DNA of 64,000 bases, taken from NCBI GenBank assembly GCA_001821055.1, contig MHRT01000001.1, forward strand, positions 27,868 through 91,867, written 5' to 3'. The stretch comes from Candidatus Taylorbacteria bacterium RIFCSPHIGHO2_12_FULL_45_16. Lineage in GTDB: Bacteria; Patescibacteriota; Minisyncoccia; Phycocordibacterales; PALSA-1337. How positions within the stretch are numbered: the stretch's first letter is position 1; the number at the start of each line of letters is the position of its first letter. Of the stretch, positions 708 through 57,933 are shown piece by piece. A program made the position numbers and the translations under genes. The notes under the pieces are model-generated. The model did no database searches. It was not told where the DNA came from and saw nothing but the letters and a program-made list of their open reading frames with translations.

Positions 708-1814
708 TTACCGGTTCATTGGCATCACCAAATACAAGAAGTTTTGCTCGCCTGATACTGGTTTTATGACAACCGGCTTGTTGAGTCCGTTAAATTGAAG
801 TGTAACACTGTCTGTGTTTATAGATTGAAATCCATCAATGAGGTATTTGTAGTTGAAATTGATTTCCATAGCCTCACCTGTTAGGGCAGCATCAATATGT
901 GTTTGGTTTTCGCCAATATCGCTGTTTTTGGTTTGTATTTCTAGTAGTTTGGTCCGTGGCTCAATCTTCATGTGAACCTGATTAAATTTGTCGGAAAAAA
1001 TATTTGATATTTTGAGGGCGTTTAGAATATCTTGTTTAAGAGCAACAACTTCTGTAGTGAATGATTTTGGGATAATTTGTCTGTAATCTGGAAAAACCCC
1101 GTCGATTATCCTCGAAACAATGTATATGCCATTGTTTTCAAATGAGATGAGATTTTTGTTGGCGCAAACTTTCATCGAAGAGGTGAGGTACCCAAGGACT
1201 CTTATAATATCAGGTATGTTTTTGAATGGGATAAGAATATCATTTAATTTGTTGGTTGTTGGGGTTTTTATCTTCTTTTCAGATAATCTAAATGAGTCTG
1301 TGGCAACAAATGTTAGGTTTTCATTGTCTTTATATATATACACACTAGAAAGTTCGGGTTTTACATTGGATATTGAAGCACTATAAAAAACAGCAGTGAG
1401 ACCTTGGGTAAAATCTTCAGGGGAAATTTGATATTCTTGGCAGTCTTTAAGTTTTGGAATACTAGGAAAATCTTCTACTGGAACAGTCTTAATAACACCT
1501 TTTGATTTGTTTGTTTTTATATGTAGATTTCCAGAAATAAATTCTATAACCACTGATTGGTTTTGATCTTGTGTTTGGGATATAAATAAGGAAAGTGTTT
1601 TAGCTGGAACAGCAAACGTCCCAATTACATCAGATTTTGCTGGAACAAAAATTTCCACCCCAATATCCAAATTTGTTGCTCTAAGGATAACCCCATTTTT
1701 AACCACATCAAATAATATACAAGATAATACTGGAAGTGTTTGGTGTTTATTTGCTACCTTTTCAAGTAAAACAATTACTTCTTTTATTTTTTTAAACCCC
1801 AATTCTATTTTCAT
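708..1814 (-). CDS. dnaN: DNA polymerase III beta subunit (sliding clamp)
   Basis: The 368-aa product has a three-domain clamp-like length and composition. It sits directly downstream of dnaA on the same strand, the canonical dnaA-dnaN arrangement. Confidence 0.85.
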   Translation of the reverse strand: MKIELGFKKIKEVIVLLEKVANKHQTLPVLSCILFDVVKNGVILRATNLDIGVEIFVPAKSDVIGTFAVPAKTLSLFISQTQDQNQSVVIEFISGNLHIKTNKSKGVIKTVPVEDFPSIPKLKDCQEYQISPEDFTQGLTAVFYSASISNVKPELSSVYIYKDNENLTFVATDSFRLSEKKIKTPTTNKLNDILIPFKNIPDIIRVLGYLTSSMKVCANKNLISFENNGIYIVSRIIDGVFPDYRQIIPKSFTTEVVALKQDILNALKISNIFSDKFNQVHMKIEPRTKLLEIQTKNSDIGENQTHIDAALTGEAMEINFNYKYLIDGFQSINTDSVTLQFNGLNKPVVIKPVSGEQNFLYLVMPMNR

Positions 1815-2013
1815 AATGAATAATTTTATTTTTTAAACCCAAACAAATTTATTATTAAACCTGTTGATATGTTGAAATCTGTCTTTAAACCACACCCACA
1901 ACTGTTTTTTACTGGTTTTGTTTTCTAATAAGTTTGTGATTGTATTTTACTAACAAACTTACCAACAAATAAACCAATAGTTGTATACAAATTATTCACA
2001 TAGTTATCCACGC

Positions 2014-3360
2014 CTATAACATAGTTCTTACTTGGGTTATCTCTTGCGACAGTAATTGGTTAGTTTTTATTTCTTCACGCATTTTTTCGTATGAGTGAAT
2101 AACTGTCGTGTGGTCTCTTCCACCCAACTTTTCCCCAATTGACGGAAAAGAAATACCAAAATCTTCCCTTAATATATACATAACTACTTGACGAGGTCTC
2201 ACTACCTCCTTGCGTCTAGTTTTGTTGTATATACTTTCTTCGTCTATATTATAAAACTCAGAAACTATTTTCACCACATCCTTAACCGACACCATCTTTT
2301 TTGGTTTTAAGTTGTTTTTGAGAATATTGCGAATCTCGTTGAGGTTCAACTCTTTGTTTTTTAGTTGTATTTGGCAGGCAATAATATTGATTATACCCTC
2401 AATTTCACGGATATTGTCGTTGATTGATGTCGCGATACACTCAACCACCTCATCAGAAAGAGTTATTTTGTGTGGCCGGCACTTACTACGCACAATCATC
2501 ACTCGAGATTCTTGGTCGGGTTCCGGAATATCAACAATCATTCCCATGGAGAATCGGCCACGCAGGCGGTCTTCAAGGCCGGGGATGGTGTTGGGATGTT
2601 TATCTCCAGAAAAGACCAATTGGCGAGCAGTGTCATAGAATGTATTGAAGAAATGGAAAAGTTCCTCTTGAAACTTTTCTTTGTTCGCGAAAAATTGGAT
2701 ATCATCCATGATAATGACGTCATATTTACGGTATTTGTCTTTAAAAGCTTGAACCTTTCCCTCTTGAATAGCGGAAAACAATTCTGAACCAAAACGCTCA
2801 GATGTTAAATAAAATATTTTTTTATCGGGATGAAGCTTTTTTATCTCATTTCCCACAGCTTGAATTATGTGTGTTTTGCCACGACCAGTTTGTCCATAAA
2901 TGAAGAGAGGGTTGTATACTTGGCCCGGACTCTTTACAACCATTTGTGAAGCGGCGTGAGCCAACTCATTAAAAGGTCCCACCACAAGGCTCTCAAAAGT
3001 GTATCTAGGATTTAAGTTGTCTTCCTTGTTGATGTAGAAATCCTGTAACGGCATGGCGATAGTCGGAGCCTGAGACTGTTCTTTTCGTGTATTTTGGCCA
3101 CTTTTACCATCTTCTCGCACAATGACATATTCAAGCGCTCGTACATGCTCATTCATCTGCCTTAAAATGCGTAAAATTGAACTGTGGAACTTTTTTTGGA
3201 GCCATTCGTGGGTAAATGAGTTGGGAACACCGAGGTATATGGTACCTTCATCTTCACGCAGAATGCGGATATCTTTGAACCAGGTAGAAAAATTTGCTTG
3301 GGATACCGCACTTTCAATTTCTATTAGGGCAGTTTGCCACATTTTGCTGTGATCGTTCAT
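2014..3360 (-). CDS. dnaA: Chromosomal replication initiator DnaA
   Basis: The product carries a Walker A GQTGRGKTHI and the VDDIQF box. Its C-terminal DNA-binding domain (EKLGGRDHTTVIHSYEKM) matches the DnaA signature, and the length is 448 aa. Confidence 0.95.
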   Translation of the reverse strand: MNDHSKMWQTALIEIESAVSQANFSTWFKDIRILREDEGTIYLGVPNSFTHEWLQKKFHSSILRILRQMNEHVRALEYVIVREDGKSGQNTRKEQSQAPTIAMPLQDFYINKEDNLNPRYTFESLVVGPFNELAHAASQMVVKSPGQVYNPLFIYGQTGRGKTHIIQAVGNEIKKLHPDKKIFYLTSERFGSELFSAIQEGKVQAFKDKYRKYDVIIMDDIQFFANKEKFQEELFHFFNTFYDTARQLVFSGDKHPNTIPGLEDRLRGRFSMGMIVDIPEPDQESRVMIVRSKCRPHKITLSDEVVECIATSINDNIREIEGIINIIACQIQLKNKELNLNEIRNILKNNLKPKKMVSVKDVVKIVSEFYNIDEESIYNKTRRKEVVRPRQVVMYILREDFGISFPSIGEKLGGRDHTTVIHSYEKMREEIKTNQLLSQEITQVRTML

Positions 3361-3524
3361 TGATAGTAATTAGGTACCAGTAAGTATATACCTGTTTATA
3401 ATTTTGCAAACTTGTGGAGAGTAAAAAAATATGGTGATAAGGTGTGGATAAAGTATAAATACAAAAAACACACAACACCTCCTGACTTGATAGCAGAACT
3501 AGAATATGTAATAGTATATTAATC
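3361..3524. promoter_or_regulatory. oriC-like AT-rich region with DnaA boxes between dnaA and rpmH
   Basis: A perfect DnaA box TGTGGATAA lies at 3443-3451, with near-boxes at CTTGTGGAGAG and GGTGATAAG. The leader is AT-rich and sits between the divergent dnaA and rpmH genes. A further TTATCCAC lies at 2004-2011 in the dnaA-dnaN spacer. Confidence 0.6.
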
Positions 3525-32481: not shown

Positions 32482-33297
32482 ATGCGCCTCATCTCCTGGA
32501 ATGTCAACGGCATCCGTGCAGTCATCAAGAAAGATGAATTTTTGCCATTCATCAAAAAATATCAGCCCGATATTCTCTGTTTGCAAGAAACCAAGGCTGA
32601 GCAAGGTCAAGCCGTGATTGATCTACCTGAATATGAAGAATATTGGAACTCGGCCGTAAAAAATGGCTACTCTGGTACGGCTATTTTCACAAAGATAAAA
32701 CCAATGACGGTAATTAATGGTCTTCCGGACAAAATTTGCGCCAAATTTGGTCTGGCGGCCGATGAATATGGAGACCCACGTACCGAAGGCAGGGTGATTG
32801 CCGCGGAATTCGCTGATTTCTATGTAGTCACTGTCTACACTCCCAATGCCAAAGAGGATTTGAGTCGAATTCCCCTTCGCCATAAACGATGGGATCCTGC
32901 ATTCCTGGCCTATTGCAAGGAACTTGAGTCAAATAGTTCTATAGGCTCACCACATGGCAAGCCCGTTATTTTTTGCGGCGATCTCAATGTGGCCCATACG
33001 CCTGATGACCTCGCTCGACCCAAAGAAAATGAAGGTCTCAAGGGATTTACTAGAGAGGAACGAGAAGGTTTTGATAATATGGTTGACGCCGGTTTCATCG
33101 ACACTTTCAGGATGTTCAAAAAAGGCAATGGTTTCTATACCTGGTGGTCAAATTGGTCCAATGCTCGTGGGCGTAATATTGGCTGGAGGATTGATTACAT
33201 TCTCGTTTCAAAAACCTTGAAAGATAAGATCAAAAAAGCAGAAATTTTGGATGAAGTGATGGGTTCGGATCATTGTCCAGTGATGGTTGAGTTGTAA
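32482..33297 (+). CDS. xth: Exodeoxyribonuclease III (AP endonuclease)
   Basis: The product begins MRLISWNVNGIRA, runs through LCLQETK, and ends at the C-terminal SDHCPV motif. I placed the start at the internal ATG at 32482. Confidence 0.9.
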   Translation: MRLISWNVNGIRAVIKKDEFLPFIKKYQPDILCLQETKAEQGQAVIDLPEYEEYWNSAVKNGYSGTAIFTKIKPMTVINGLPDKICAKFGLAADEYGDPRTEGRVIAAEFADFYVVTVYTPNAKEDLSRIPLRHKRWDPAFLAYCKELESNSSIGSPHGKPVIFCGDLNVAHTPDDLARPKENEGLKGFTREEREGFDNMVDAGFIDTFRMFKKGNGFYTWWSNWSNARGRNIGWRIDYILVSKTLKDKIKKAEILDEVMGSDHCPVMVEL

Positions 33298-33397
33298 TTT
33301 TTCAATTATGTCGCTATCTCATTCTTACCTTGTAGTTTTTTGAAATCTAGTTGTCTAAATCCCAAACTCTGTCGCGTTACTCCAATCCATCTAGAAA

Positions 33398-33423
33398 CTA
33401 CCCAAAATCATTGGGTAGTTTTA
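33398..33423 (+). terminator. Intrinsic terminator of xth
   Basis: The hairpin CTACCCA-AAATCAT-TGGGTAG is followed by TTTT. Confidence 0.65.
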
Positions 33424-34009
33424 CGTTGTGGTTGAGCCGTAATATGTAAAATTCGGGAAAATCTGGTGTAAAGAAAAGCCGCGTTAAGCAGCAATTTCAG
33501 ATGGAAAAAGTGTCAACGCGGCTACTAGTGAAGTCGCGAAGAATGAAAGAGCTTGGGTCCACAGACCCGGCAGATTCAAATGGTGAATCTGGTGCGTCCT
33601 GATGATTCCTAAGTTGACGGTGTGCACTGTATCTTAAAGAAAGTGCTCTCCCAAAGGAGGCGTAATTGTGTTTGAGACAAGTACACCGTCATATTCCTAG
33701 CAACTATTGGCCGCAAAAATTTCTTCGCGCTTCTAAGTGTGAAGCCTACCCTGAGTTTTAAGGATCAAATGTTTGTTTTGATCGCAGGAAAATGATACTA
33801 AAACTTATTCTGATATTCCCATTACACAAACTCCCCAGAAATTTTTCGTATCATTTTTCTGCGATCACCTCGGATAACAAACGAGTCTACAAATATTGTA
33901 TGTCCTTTATAAGTTTCTGTAAAGGACATAATTGTGGATAACCAGGTCTTTGAGAAATACATATAGGACAAGGTATTTTGCCGGACTAAATGTCCTTCAA
34001 CACTCTGTT
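33424..34009. other. ORF-free, hairpin-dense 590-bp region (candidate structured ncRNA or element remnant)
   Basis: The region has no ORF longer than 60 aa. It carries a 9-bp hairpin at 33477-33523, a 20-bp inverted repeat at 33779-33798 and 33848-33867 (one G-U wobble), and a 10-bp hairpin at 33900-33929. Confidence 0.4.
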
Positions 34010-35524
34010 TTACTGCACAAAATGTTTCTTTCTAATCTCTTTGAGATTTTCCTCATCAACCTCTTCTCTCTTCTCTCTTCCTTTTTCTGCCAACTTGATG
34101 AGTTCATTTTCAGGTAATGTAAAAAGCTTCCTGGATTTTTCTTCCAAATATTTTATGGTATTTAACTTTGGGTTATCAAGCACTTCTTCCATGAGGGCAT
34201 TCAGAATTAACCCAACCTTCGGTCCGGCCGAGATTTCACCTATCTCCATGATTCTCTTGCCATCAATCTTTAACATACCTACCGAGACTGGATCTCGGAG
34301 AGCCTCTTCAACCATAGATTTGTACTTACGGAGTCGGTATGGGTCGGCCTTAGGCCTTCCAGTACCTATTCGGTCACAAATACGAACGTTCATCAGGTCC
34401 CAGATGTTATCTTTGCCTACATTCACAATCATTCGTCTAACAGCTGAAAGTGTAATCATCTCAGTATCCGCAAAAAACATATGCCAACGTACAAGTTTAG
34501 TCACTTTTTCTGTTATTTCACGTGAAAATTTCATTCTTTGAAGTATTTTACGTGTTTCACGTGAACCAACTATCTCATGCCCATAGAAAGTAGGCTGTTT
34601 TGTTTCTTGTGAAACACCCTTAGTTTGGGGTTTAGATATGTCATGAAATAGGGCAGAAAGCCTTATTTCTAGGCCCCAATTGCTGTCTGCGGCGTGCTGT
34701 AGAGAGCGCAAAAGGTGTTCCCAGACCGTGAAAACATGGGCTTGGTTCTGTTGTACTCCAATTCCGGACTCTAATTCAGGTATGAAATATTTTAATAAAC
34801 CAGTTTCTTGAAGGAGTTCAATTCCAAGTTTCGGAGCAGGAGACATGATTATTTTCACGAGTTCTTCGCGGATTCGCTCAATGGAGATTTCCTTTATAGT
34901 CTGGCTAAGCGATTTTATAGCTGAAAATGTGTCCTTTTCGATTGTGAAACCAAGTTCAACCGCGAATCGGACGGCTCTGATCATCCGTAGAGCATCTTCA
35001 TTAAATCGGTCTTGGGCTCTTCCAACAGTTCTGATAGTTTTGTCCTTTATGTCCGCAAAACCACTATACAGGTCAATTATGTCCTTTATAGCTCCATTCG
35101 AAAGAGACACTGCCACGGCGTTGACCGTGAAATCTCGACGCTGGAGGTCGTTCTCTATCCTGTCGCTGAACTTTACCTTGTCTGGATGACGACGGTCAGA
35201 GTAATTCGACTCGAGACGATATGGTGTCACCTCGACATTCCGCAGAGTCAGGTCTTCCGTGACTTCATTGATCACGACGACGGTTCCGAAGACATTTTCA
35301 TAGACGGTTTTCACGAAAAGTCCCTGGATTTGCTCCGGTGTGGCGTTGGTGGTCACGTCCCAGTCCTTTGGAATTCTCCCTAGAAACAGATCACGGACAC
35401 ACCCGCCCACCAAAAATGCCTGAAAACCCGCTTTTTCCAATGTCTCGACAATGGCGACAATCTCCCCGGGAATGGGGCTATTTTTTACGATTTTAGTAGG
35501 CATTGCAGAGGTATTGTAGTACAA
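34010..35524 (-). CDS. cca: CCA-adding tRNA nucleotidyltransferase / poly(A) polymerase family with HD domain
   Basis: The product has a Pol-beta NTase head (GGCVRDLFLGRIPKDWDVTT) and a C-terminal HD domain. Confidence 0.85.
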   Translation of the reverse strand: MYYNTSAMPTKIVKNSPIPGEIVAIVETLEKAGFQAFLVGGCVRDLFLGRIPKDWDVTTNATPEQIQGLFVKTVYENVFGTVVVINEVTEDLTLRNVEVTPYRLESNYSDRRHPDKVKFSDRIENDLQRRDFTVNAVAVSLSNGAIKDIIDLYSGFADIKDKTIRTVGRAQDRFNEDALRMIRAVRFAVELGFTIEKDTFSAIKSLSQTIKEISIERIREELVKIIMSPAPKLGIELLQETGLLKYFIPELESGIGVQQNQAHVFTVWEHLLRSLQHAADSNWGLEIRLSALFHDISKPQTKGVSQETKQPTFYGHEIVGSRETRKILQRMKFSREITEKVTKLVRWHMFFADTEMITLSAVRRMIVNVGKDNIWDLMNVRICDRIGTGRPKADPYRLRKYKSMVEEALRDPVSVGMLKIDGKRIMEIGEISAGPKVGLILNALMEEVLDNPKLNTIKYLEEKSRKLFTLPENELIKLAEKGREKREEVDEENLKEIRKKHFVQ

Positions 35525-35585
35525 CTTGGGATTTTCCGCTAACTAAGCTAGTATGTAGAAGTTACGCTCGCACAAAATAATATAC

Positions 35586-35661
35586 GCGCCCGTGGCTCAA
35601 AGGATAGAGCACTTGGCTTCGGACCAAGGGGTTGGGGGTTCGAGTCCCTCCGGGCGCACCA
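35586..35661 (+). tRNA. tRNA-Arg (anticodon TCG)
   Basis: Cloverleaf with acceptor GCGCCCG/CGGGCGC, a T-arm containing GGTTCGAGTCC, anticodon loop CUUCGGA, and an encoded CCA. Confidence 0.85.
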
Positions 35662-36011
35662 TTCCACCAGTAGTTCTTTGAATGAGATACGATACCCACG
35701 CCGGATTACCTCACGGAGTCGTCCAAGATTCATGTGCATCACACCCTTTTGTCCAGCTACTGTAGACAATGTTCTTTGGGTAGCAATCGATTTGACCGGT
35801 ATCATTCCTGAATGATCTATATCAGGTCTGCAATTCTGATGTCAAACGTAATATAAATTCGATTGTATTAGGTGTTTCATATATGCTTATGAAGCGCTTG
35901 AGATGTCGTATTACGAAAAAAGTTCTGCCAGTAATGTTGATATTTTTGTAAATTATTAGAATGTACGCTATACTCTCGCTTACAGTAACTTTGTGCTTGA
36001 TTTTGTACTTC

Positions 36012-54753: not shown

Positions 54754-54848
54754 AGCAAACTAGCATCCCGTTAATAGTCGCGCCGCCACCGAGTATCCTC
54801 GGGGCGGCGCTTTCACTTTTTTCAAAGAAGCGTTATAGTTTAGATATC

Positions 54849-55070
54849 ATGACGGACCTGAATAGACAATTTCTTTTGTTTCTGGGGAAAAATATTCGCC
54901 GGCTTCGCGAACACAGAAATATTTCGCAGGAGGAATTCGGTGAGATCGTAGGAGTGCACAGGACATATGTCGGTATGATTGAAAGAGGAGAGAAAAACAT
55001 CACTATTTTCAGTTTGAGAAAATTTGCCGAGGCGCTCGGCGTAAGAGTCAAGGACTTGATTGATTTCTAG
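54849..55070 (+). CDS. XRE-family HTH transcriptional regulator
   Basis: The product carries the HTH ISQEEFGEIVGVHRTYVGMIERGEKN. I placed the start at the internal ATG at 54849. Confidence 0.65.
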   Translation: MTDLNRQFLLFLGKNIRRLREHRNISQEEFGEIVGVHRTYVGMIERGEKNITIFSLRKFAEALGVRVKDLIDF

Positions 55071-55210
55071 CGTTACTGGCGCTACTTATAGTTATCCACA
55101 GGTCAAGTTTGTGCAACCCTTGACTCTTTTTCGTAATTGGCTATGATATCCATAGATAGCGCTAACTATAGTATTCATAACGAATATGAGGCGCTAATGG
55201 AGAACTTCCT

Positions 55211-55342
55211 ATGCCTGAAGGTAATTGTGACGGTGATGGTCAGAAAATAGTGAAGCTGAAGCTTCGTGGAGATGATTCGGATGACGAGCCACAGATTTGG
55301 CTATTCAAGACCGAACCTAAAGTGCCGCCTGACCGCAGATGA
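55211..55342 (+). CDS. Small acidic ORF (43 aa), speculative
   Basis: A GGAG sits 8 nt upstream of the ATG. The translation is MPEGNCDGDGQKIVKLKLRGDDSDDEPQIWLFKTEPKVPPDRR. Confidence 0.2.
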   Translation: MPEGNCDGDGQKIVKLKLRGDDSDDEPQIWLFKTEPKVPPDRR

Positions 55343-55423
55343 TTTGCCTCAATGAGGTAGAGTCGCTGGGTATTTGATTCCCAGGGTTCGTTATAATAGC
55401 AACAACAATAGTTCCTTGATCTT

Positions 55424-55540
55424 ATGAAGATTACGGAGAATGGTTCTGGCGGTCACGGAAACGGCAATGCTGGTTCTGGTGGTCAATCCGGAGGTCACGG
55501 TGGCTCCTCGGGTGGAGGTAGCGGCATCCGTGGCAAGTAA
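55424..55540 (+). CDS. Gly/His/Ser/Asn-rich 38-aa peptide gene (candidate small secreted or modified peptide)
   Basis: The translation is MKITENGSGGHGNGNAGSGGQSGGHGGSSGGGSGIRGK. It is followed by the hairpin GGAGGAG-TCTCAGG-CTCCTCC and a T-rich tract before the next ORF. Confidence 0.35.
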   Translation: MKITENGSGGHGNGNAGSGGQSGGHGGSSGGGSGIRGK

Positions 55541-57680: not shown

Positions 57681-57798
57681 CCCAAAGATAATATAGCTGT
57701 GTGGCATGCCAAATCTATATTCTGACCTGTAGATGACAATCTCCAGTTATAGTCATACGACTATGGCTCCGCTCGCATGATCGTGGGTTATCCACACA

Positions 57799-57836: not shown

Positions 57837-57933
57837 TCATCGGATTAGAAGCGCTTCTCGGTTATTTCCGGAATGAGCGGGTCGACTGCCACAGAGCATG
57901 TCGATTTCCATAACGACAGAACATCGAAATATC

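Follow-up and report, generated by a model that had tools for sequence, protein, structure and literature searches.

What occupies the gene-free space between the convergent genes xth and cca in Candidatus Taylorbacteria bacterium RIFCSPHIGHO2_12_FULL_45_16? The two genes lie in a 64,000-nucleotide stretch of contig MHRT01000001.1, which was analysed as a whole and is called the window here, with positions counted from its first letter. The spacer between them is 712 bp long (33298-34009; xth stops at 33297, and cca, on the minus strand, has its stop codon at 34010) and is the widest gap between open reading frames (ORFs) across the window. The original prediction had singled out 33424-34009 as an ORF-poor stretch with several hairpins, to be read either as a structured non-coding RNA (ncRNA) or as the decayed ends of an inserted element. 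The lack of ORFs is real: those lying wholly within this stretch are all 49 aa or shorter, and two plus-strand ORFs (33932-34117, 61 aa; 33990-34541, 183 aa) start at its right edge and run antisense into cca. Judged from the sequence, the spacer very probably holds an autonomous gene for a structured ncRNA of an undescribed family, with a DnaA box in its promoter.

In this gene, a near-consensus sigma-70 promoter on the minus strand, with a perfect DnaA box upstream in helical phase, is predicted to start an RNA of about 420 nt, and a canonical intrinsic terminator would end it. The RNA is predicted to consist of a 5' hairpin domain with CCGAGG, an exposed pyrimidine motif of the GUUCUUU type, a GGGUAGG-hairpin and a multi-branched central domain, and its helices are kept by compensatory substitutions. 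The marks of a stand-alone bacterial ncRNA gene are all present in the sequence (its own promoter and terminator, no conserved ORF, compensatory helices), and together with clade-wide conservation they support the first of the two earlier proposals.

The conservation was followed in 80 related loci (L004-L083) from species-representative genomes, all Patescibacteria of the candidate phyla radiation (CPR) and labelled Ca. Taylorbacteria, Zambryskibacteria, Kaiserbacteria, Nomurabacteria, Paceibacterota or Parcubacteria, with cca 56-82% identical. The genes cca and xth converge in about 70 of them, just as they do in the window, and the gap between the two is always at least 279 bp and usually 330-790 bp. 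Using blastn, window positions 33391-33942 align to the closest relatives at 70-74% DNA identity (their cca proteins are 79-82% identical), and iterated nhmmer finds the right-hand 90 bp (33855-33942, the promoter end) in 67 of 72 syntenic gaps, a level of conservation beyond chance. The unit adjoins cca in 69 of the 80 genomes and stays beside it even where xth is missing. An independent scan of metagenome contigs with the pattern GTTATCCACA-N(3-14)-GTCCTTTACA, which permits distances of 7-18 nt between the DnaA box and the -35 hexamer, gave 117 distinct modules, nearly all next to cca and/or xth. Altogether, about 190 related CPR (Paceibacteria) sequences carry the unit at the same spot. The locus is single-copy and has no flanking terminal inverted repeats or target duplications. 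As for orientation, the unit sits at the cca end in 22 relatives, as in the window, and at the xth end, inverted, in 44. Two thirds of the genome loci therefore have the unit reversed with respect to the genes around it. The content of the gap flips as a block between cca and xth, which is the behaviour of an autonomous gene.

Scanning the window for promoters gave TTTACA-17-TACAAT (33923-33895), which matches the sigma-70 consensus at 10 of 12 positions. On the minus strand, the conserved 90 bp read GTTATCCACA, a short gap, TGTCC-TTTACA, 16-17 nt, TAnAAT, about 6 nt and YAGA(U/A/C)C. A sigma-70 promoter was parsed in 64 of 66 relatives, and among these 64 the -35 hexamer is TTTACA in 50, the -10 hexamer fits TAnnnT in 63, and the spacer is 16-18 nt (17 nt in 34, 16 nt in 27 and 18 nt in three). 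The DnaA box is perfect in 56 of them. Its distance to the -35 hexamer is bimodal, with 8-11 nt in 37 loci and 17-19 nt in 25; likewise, in the 117 metagenomic modules it is 8, 9 or 10 nt (108) or 16 or 18 nt (9), and none lies at 11-15 nt. With a shift of one helical turn, the box still faces the same side of the DNA, as expected if the bound protein touches RNA polymerase or a partner. The same 9-mer is found upstream of dnaA (3451-3443) beside a near-box (the pair spans 3451-3434), which makes TTATCCACA plausibly the DnaA site of this organism.

Two copies of TGTCCTTTA in the window form a palindrome that overlaps the -35 hexamer and fills the spacer, and in many relatives a direct repeat, TGTCCTTTACATGTCTTTTAT, stands in its place. 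The motif GTCCTTTAC is usually duplicated, either inverted or direct, and the direct second copy in the spacer of relatives is TGTCTTTTAT. There are 66 occurrences of GTCCTTTAC inside the modules and 13 elsewhere in 1.32 Mb; such near-exclusivity to the modules sets it apart from general promoter features. The duplicated TGTCCTTTA is probably read by a second factor. This palindrome had been described as a 10-bp hairpin, which exists and is in fact a perfect 11 bp, and the DnaA box had been placed one base off its real position. Both are DNA elements of the promoter, beyond the transcript; among the features noted earlier, only a 20-bp inverted repeat is an RNA helix inside it. That repeat also turned out longer than described (28 nt at 89% complementarity, 33779-33806 / 33840-33867).

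At the other end of the unit, the 9-bp hairpin of the original prediction is present and is the stem of the minus-strand intrinsic terminator, and a terminator scan also flagged a terminator-like minus-strand site at this stem. Promoter and terminator were thus both detected independently by the feature scan of the window. In 53 of the 64 relatives, the unit is closed by a G+C-rich hairpin followed by at least four U, most with a conserved CCGC...GCGG stem, and the predicted RNAs are 227-447 nt long with one exception (L033, 129 nt, which looks like a premature terminator call).

Folding of 33430-33780 beats 100 of 100 dinucleotide shuffles on both strands (z of -4.0 on the plus and -4.5 on the minus strand). 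Helix support was measured in three helix sets as the percentage of paired cells, compared with shuffles and with controls in which the partner strand was slid. For the 5' domain (alignment A3), 92.8% of cells are paired, against 78.9% after shuffling and 35-50% after sliding, and 13 of 20 pairs show compensatory changes. For the central core (14 MAFFT-aligned sequences, RNAalifold), the value is 89.4% against 73.7% shuffled (0 of 500 shuffles as high) and 32-49% slid, with compensatory changes in 18 of 25 pairs. With a covariance model of this core (R1), the window reaches 107.8 bits (E 4e-25), and 24 relatives are recovered, including 11 from outside the seed; in the resulting alignment A2 (25 sequences), 22 of 25 pairs are compensatory. 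In 17 short-type relatives, whose middle domain differs, the paired share is 93% (84% shuffled, 36-52% slid), with compensatory changes in 15 of 30 pairs, located in the 5' hairpin, a long-range helix and the terminator. Many of the pairs are G-U, which on the other strand would be A-C mismatches; their frequency fits the minus strand only and agrees with the orientation of promoter and terminator.

Across the family, a set of constant parts surrounds a variable one. The constant parts are the promoter module, the 5' YAGA(U/A/C)C, the 5' hairpin with CCGAGG or CCGAUAAACCC, the exposed motif [A/U]UGUUCUUU(A/C)A, a G+C hairpin (GGGUAGGC... or GGGAC..GGCC..GUCCC), a closing helix of the GAAG/CUUC type and the terminator with its CCGC/GCGG stem, while the middle domain is replaced between sub-lineages. 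Within 14 long-type relatives, GGUAGG is invariant. Sequences of the type G[U/C/A]UCUUU occur 65 times in 53 RNAs, where about 6 are expected and 4 are found on the antisense strand, and the copies sit in two positional clusters. The features of the window are collected in Table 1.

Table 1. Positions of the predicted promoter, transcript and RNA elements in the xth-cca spacer (window coordinates; MFE, minimum free energy)
Feature	Position	Strand	Details
Perfect DnaA box	33933-33941	-	TGTGGATAA on plus, TTATCCACA on minus; 9 nt upstream of -35 hexamer
-35 region TGTCC-TTTACA	33918-33928	-	hexamer TTTACA at 33923-33918
-10 hexamer TACAAT	33895-33900	-	
Promoter-embedded 11-bp palindrome	33899-33930		ATGTCCTTTA / TAAAGGACAT, 33899-33909 / 33920-33930; repeat search
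Predicted transcript, about 416-420 nt	33470-33888	-	MFE -132.6 kcal/mol
5' domain	33771-33882	-	outer stem GUUUGUU / AACAAAC, 33882-33876 with 33777-33771
Conserved CCGAGG in 5' domain	33873-33868	-	
Long 5'-domain helix (20-bp inverted repeat)	33867-33848 with 33798-33779	-	
Single-stranded pyrimidine motif 1	33755-33769	-	UUUGAUCCUUAAAAC; degenerate version of [A/U]UGUUCUUU(A/C)A
Conserved GGGUAGG, then short hairpin H2	33729-33751	-	GCUUC...GAAGC
Central multi-branched domain	33535-33729	-	closed by CGCGAAGAA / UUCUUCGCG, 33729-33721 with 33543-33535
Central-domain core	33595-33714	-	120 nt, 25 modelled base pairs, 6 helices
Hairpins within central domain	33592-33571 and 33568-33555	-	repeat search, MFE, alignment
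Motif 2 in central domain	33553-33541	-	AGCUCUUUCAUUC
Intrinsic terminator	33470-33523	-	stem AGCCGCGUU...AACGCGGCU, 33523-33515 with 33485-33477, then UUUCUUU

Several points weigh against an ncRNA gene as described. Both ends of the transcript are predictions, the start being placed 7 nt past the -10 hexamer in the conserved YAGA(U/A/C)C and the end in the run of U that follows the terminator. Phylogeny is not taken into account by the shuffle control, which related sequences can exceed even without structure, and the model served to fit alignment A2; controls with slid partners and the alignments made by MAFFT only (A1, A3 and A4) lessen this concern and do not remove it. The middle of the RNA appears evolutionarily plastic and its core limited to the sub-lineage of the window, as a core of the window type is confined to the closest relatives (cca identity of about 65% or more) and occurs in 24 of the 80 genome loci and in 5 of 100 metagenomic ones. 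Motif 1 is degenerate in the window (GAUCCUU), and a search of the window for its targets, over 66 translation-initiation regions, gave a best duplex of -11.5 kcal/mol, no better than those of shuffled motifs. Finally, the promoter of the RNA has a single DnaA box.

Among the other explanations, the best placed, though improbable, is a highly diverged housekeeping RNA (RNase P RNA, transfer-messenger RNA (tmRNA), signal recognition particle (SRP) RNA or a 6S/Ms1-like RNA) that standard models miss. RNase P RNAs of CPR bacteria often score under Rfam thresholds (PMC8172020), and a single-copy RNA with a very strong promoter in essentially every relative is typical of the housekeeping class. However, no Rfam family matched the window or 15 relatives at the gathering score, and no family recurred below threshold in three homologues at E up to 10, which over 4227 families is stricter than the 5-bit threshold in PMC8172020. 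In these searches, of which the one at E up to 10 covered the spacer and two divergent homologues, only tRNAs and scattered chance matches turned up (a CRISPR-DR17-like 24-mer within cca, and eukaryotic microRNA, small nucleolar RNA and long non-coding RNA models). The middle third of the RNA is moreover swapped between sub-lineages, which is unusual for a catalytic core.

The single classes were also taken in turn, and the earlier statement, made by eye, that the region matches neither tmRNA, RNase P RNA nor SRP RNA holds after Rfam, ARAGORN and motif searches. For tmRNA, the window gave no ARAGORN or Rfam match, and the T-arm and acceptor motifs are missing from all 53 homologues searched. 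For RNase P RNA, RF00010 and RF00011 gave no match at either the gathering score or E up to 10, and the P4 strands are absent from the same 53 sequences, with CR-I (GAGGAAAGUCC, at most one mismatch) and CR-V (ACAGAAnnCGGCUUA, at most two mismatches) found in none. A diverged CPR RNase P RNA would resemble the spacer RNA in its genome, its 300-400 nt and its score under the standard Rfam thresholds (PMC8172020), but such RNAs still retain many conserved RNase P features (PMC8172020), whereas the universal P4, CR-I and CR-V sequences are missing here. SRP RNA was rejected with no RF00169 or RF01854 match in the window or relatives, the domain IV motif being absent as judged by eye only. With 6S RNA and mycobacterial Ms1, the spacer RNA shares a probably high abundance, a strong housekeeping-type promoter, a single copy, poor sequence conservation and a length of about 200-400 nt. 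Unlike 6S RNA, it pairs its 5' and 3' ends no better than shuffled sequences do (median duplex -11.6 against -10.5 kcal/mol); it has a multi-domain consensus of local helices with no rod and no central bubble, its 3' end is a terminator hairpin, and Rfam gives neither a 6S nor an Ms1 match.

Another explanation, likewise improbable and ranked after the first, takes the DNA as the selected object: a secondary locus for DnaA binding, similar to datA/DARS or to an origin, in which the TGTCCTTTA repeats resemble iterons and any transcription is incidental. The invariant DnaA box and the locus-specific duplication of TGTCCTTTA fit this idea, and so do the repeats of the GUUCUUU-like motif along the unit and the shift of gene orientation and cumulative G-C skew within 31-36 kb of the window. 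Yet the locus has one DnaA box only, and the canonical arrangement of several boxes with AT-rich DNA lies some 30 kb off, at dnaN (708-1814) and dnaA (2014-3360), both on the minus strand, where the spacer between the two genes has two inverted near-boxes (about 2012-1992) followed by AT-rich DNA. That region (708-3460) is, from its sequence, likely to be oriC, and the single box and strand-specific covariation of the xth-cca spacer led us to reject the latter as the origin itself. A function at the DNA level also leaves unexplained the compensatory changes, including G-U pairs that exist on one strand only, as well as the conserved -35 and -10 hexamers at 16-18 nt spacing with a terminator at the far end.

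That the transcript is the mRNA of a very small protein or leader peptide (for example with an M-F-F start at [A/U]UGUUCUUU), or a dual-function RNA, is highly improbable. In most homologues the conserved motif opens with AUG or UUG followed by UUC UUU, and some short-type relatives have ORFs of 38-61 codons from the motif with weak peptide similarity. The supposed start is, however, AAG or UAG in several homologues; the ORF from the motif varies between 4 and 61 codons (11 in the window) with no conserved stop position, and by inspection no Shine-Dalgarno sequence precedes the motif. The weak peptide similarity would be what in-frame nucleotide conservation alone gives. Over the whole unit, the longest sense ORFs of the homologues have a median of 38 codons and no conserved position.

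Least credible of all is a cis-acting extension of a neighbour, such as a long structured 3' untranslated region of cca or xth, a decaying spacer or the mobile-element remnant proposed earlier. In its favour, the RNA is co-directional with cca in the window, with 67 nt and no obvious cca terminator between them. Against it stand the unit's own promoter, its two orientations between cca and xth, its single copy at each locus with neither terminal inverted repeats nor target duplications at the flanks, its synteny across about 190 sequences, and its conservation at a distance where the neighbours have presumably reached saturation at synonymous sites. Signs of both purifying and compensatory selection speak against decayed element ends, and a remnant of the miniature inverted-repeat transposable element or insertion sequence type was rejected on its one copy per locus, its fixed synteny and the fact that the sole long inverted repeat is an internal covarying helix. 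The original prediction had expected a decaying spacer if Rfam gave no match, relatives showed no conservation and the stretch was not transcribed; there is indeed no Rfam match, but the strong conservation argues against decay. A riboswitch or cis-regulatory leader was also considered and rejected, as the terminator faces the 3' end of the convergent gene (or cca where the unit is inverted) and no ORF follows.

To return to the autonomous ncRNA gene, DnaA bound at about -49 (about -59 with the extra helical turn) would, with a fair degree of probability, modulate RNA polymerase, and the level of the RNA would then track the state of the initiator. Activation would be likelier than repression, given that the box is upstream of -35 and leaves the promoter itself free. 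DnaA-controlled promoters include those of dnaA, nrdAB and mioC in E. coli and sda in B. subtilis. The present promoter resembles them in having a consensus 9-mer box beside a sigma-70 promoter, and sda is also a small stand-alone gene that could report replication-initiation status. It differs from them in that the product would be a structured RNA and not a protein, that there is one box, upstream of -35, and that the box position follows a strict one-helical-turn rule over about 180 promoters.

How the RNA might work can be said only tentatively. It is possible that it acts in trans as a regulatory or protein-binding RNA, through the conserved single-stranded pyrimidine motifs and a conserved loop. 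A pairing between motif 1 and the 5' strand of the helix that closes the central domain was considered as well; some long-type relatives allow it, but the window and the short-type RNAs do not. Cold-shock protein CspB of B. subtilis is reported to prefer GTCTTTG/T in single-stranded DNA (PMC1904285), and the resemblance of the pyrimidine motif to this preference is a lead and no result. A further proposal, which we regard as speculative and rather doubtful, is a replication-status signal of Paceibacteria: DnaA would gate an abundant RNA, the G(U/C)UCUUU motifs of which would sequester a pyrimidine-binding protein, with a cold-shock-domain protein as a candidate partner by analogy, or pair with purine-rich ribosome-binding sites. 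If true, chromosome replication would be coupled to global translation or RNA metabolism in minimal cells, and at least one phage lineage would have copied the promoter module to drive a structural gene.

The spacer RNA may be compared with the OLE, ROOL, GOLLD and raiA motif RNAs (for raiA, PMC10861870), which are likewise stand-alone genes of several hundred nucleotides with multi-domain covarying structure, restricted to single lineages, with no ORF and with a function not deducible from sequence. Unlike them, it has no sequence or structure match in Rfam 15, belongs to Paceibacteria (CPR) at a fixed place beside cca, carries an invariant DnaA box phased to the promoter and has a central domain swapped between sub-lineages. 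In Caulobacter, CcnA is a cell-cycle-coupled ncRNA reported to be tied to CtrA and GcrA (PMC8959179); its synthesis is wired to a master regulator of the cell cycle or replication, as would be that of the spacer RNA, with a proposed feedback on gene expression. The two RNAs share no homology, the DnaA box is the only recognisable site of the spacer RNA, and no targets were found for the latter. Searches of the literature turned up no ncRNA of this kind from CPR bacteria or Parcubacteria, no published account of CPR regulatory RNAs, and no structured RNA or small RNA driven by a DnaA box. We rate the spacer RNA as a new family among the orphan structured bacterial ncRNAs, with an unusual DnaA-phased promoter.

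Bacteria of the candidate phyla radiation make up a large share of bacterial diversity. A clade-wide RNA of several hundred nucleotides with a defined promoter, terminator and partial secondary structure is directly testable, and its invariant, helically phased DnaA box suggests a direct link from the replication initiator to an RNA effector. Moreover, the promoter module with GTCCTTTAC is a specific sequence tag that could aid the binning of Paceibacteria contigs and the assignment of phage hosts, and gene-free spacers of compact CPR genomes merit attention despite an empty Rfam result.

The promoter module is also present in a phage lineage known from one metagenome contig and three IMG/VR contigs (L084:8601-8663 on the minus strand, L203:184-250, L204:1451-1520 and L205:1993-2060), as GTTATCCACA followed by TTTGTCCTTTACA, TGTCTTTTAT and TACAAT. 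It lies directly past the gene of the terminase large subunit and 7 nt ahead of the ATG of a 575-aa ORF, which looks leaderless and matches nothing in Pfam or PHROG. Its presence may point to a Paceibacteria phage using a borrowed host promoter. At another locus (L194:3066-3640), two promoter modules stand in tandem about 500 nt apart, and the first precedes a short RNA body that differs in sequence and has a terminator of its own, which may be a duplicated paralogue of the RNA gene.

Perfect DnaA boxes are frequent beyond the RNA promoter. The window has 4, against about 0.5 expected by our own calculation (9-mer, both strands of 64 kb), and around cca in L004-L083 there are 66 perfect TTATCCACA boxes outside the RNA promoter in about 0.66 Mb, against about 5 by chance. 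One box of the window (55092-55100) is just downstream of a 73-aa HTH_3 (XRE-type) ORF (54849-55070, Pfam E 2.6e-16), which lies in the second-widest gap (54754-55439), and another is at 57788, ahead of a gene starting at 57898.

Pfam domains of the neighbouring genes are PolyA_pol/HD (cca), Exo_endo_phos (xth) and Phage_integrase (xerC-like). Contigs in three ENA metagenome assemblies encode a cca protein of identical sequence, and an exact-sequence look-up of the xth protein gave no match. The xth gene beside the RNA falls into two classes at the same syntenic position in L004-L083, about 60-85% and about 38-46% identical to the window protein, which suggests that a distant homologue replaced the exonuclease III gene in some loci.

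About 100 nt past the xth stop, a perfect 11-bp hairpin (AAACTACCCAA / TTGGGTAGTTT, 33395-33421) is followed by TTTTAC on the plus strand. It is probably the terminator of xth, may on the minus strand serve as a back-up terminator for the RNA, and corresponds to a sub-threshold Rfam STnc30 match (33327-33429). A 22-nt direct repeat at 77% identity has one copy spanning the xth stop codon (33284-33305) and a second 145 nt downstream, just past the RNA terminator (33429-33450), and may be due to chance or to a small duplication. The CRISPR-DR17 match in the coding sequence of cca (34028-34051; 32 bits against a gathering score of 42) is taken as chance because it is a single copy with no array. 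Further along, an 85-aa minus-strand ORF of public assemblies (35548-35805) overlaps tRNA-Arg (35586-35661, plus strand), has no Pfam match and is probably a spurious gene call.

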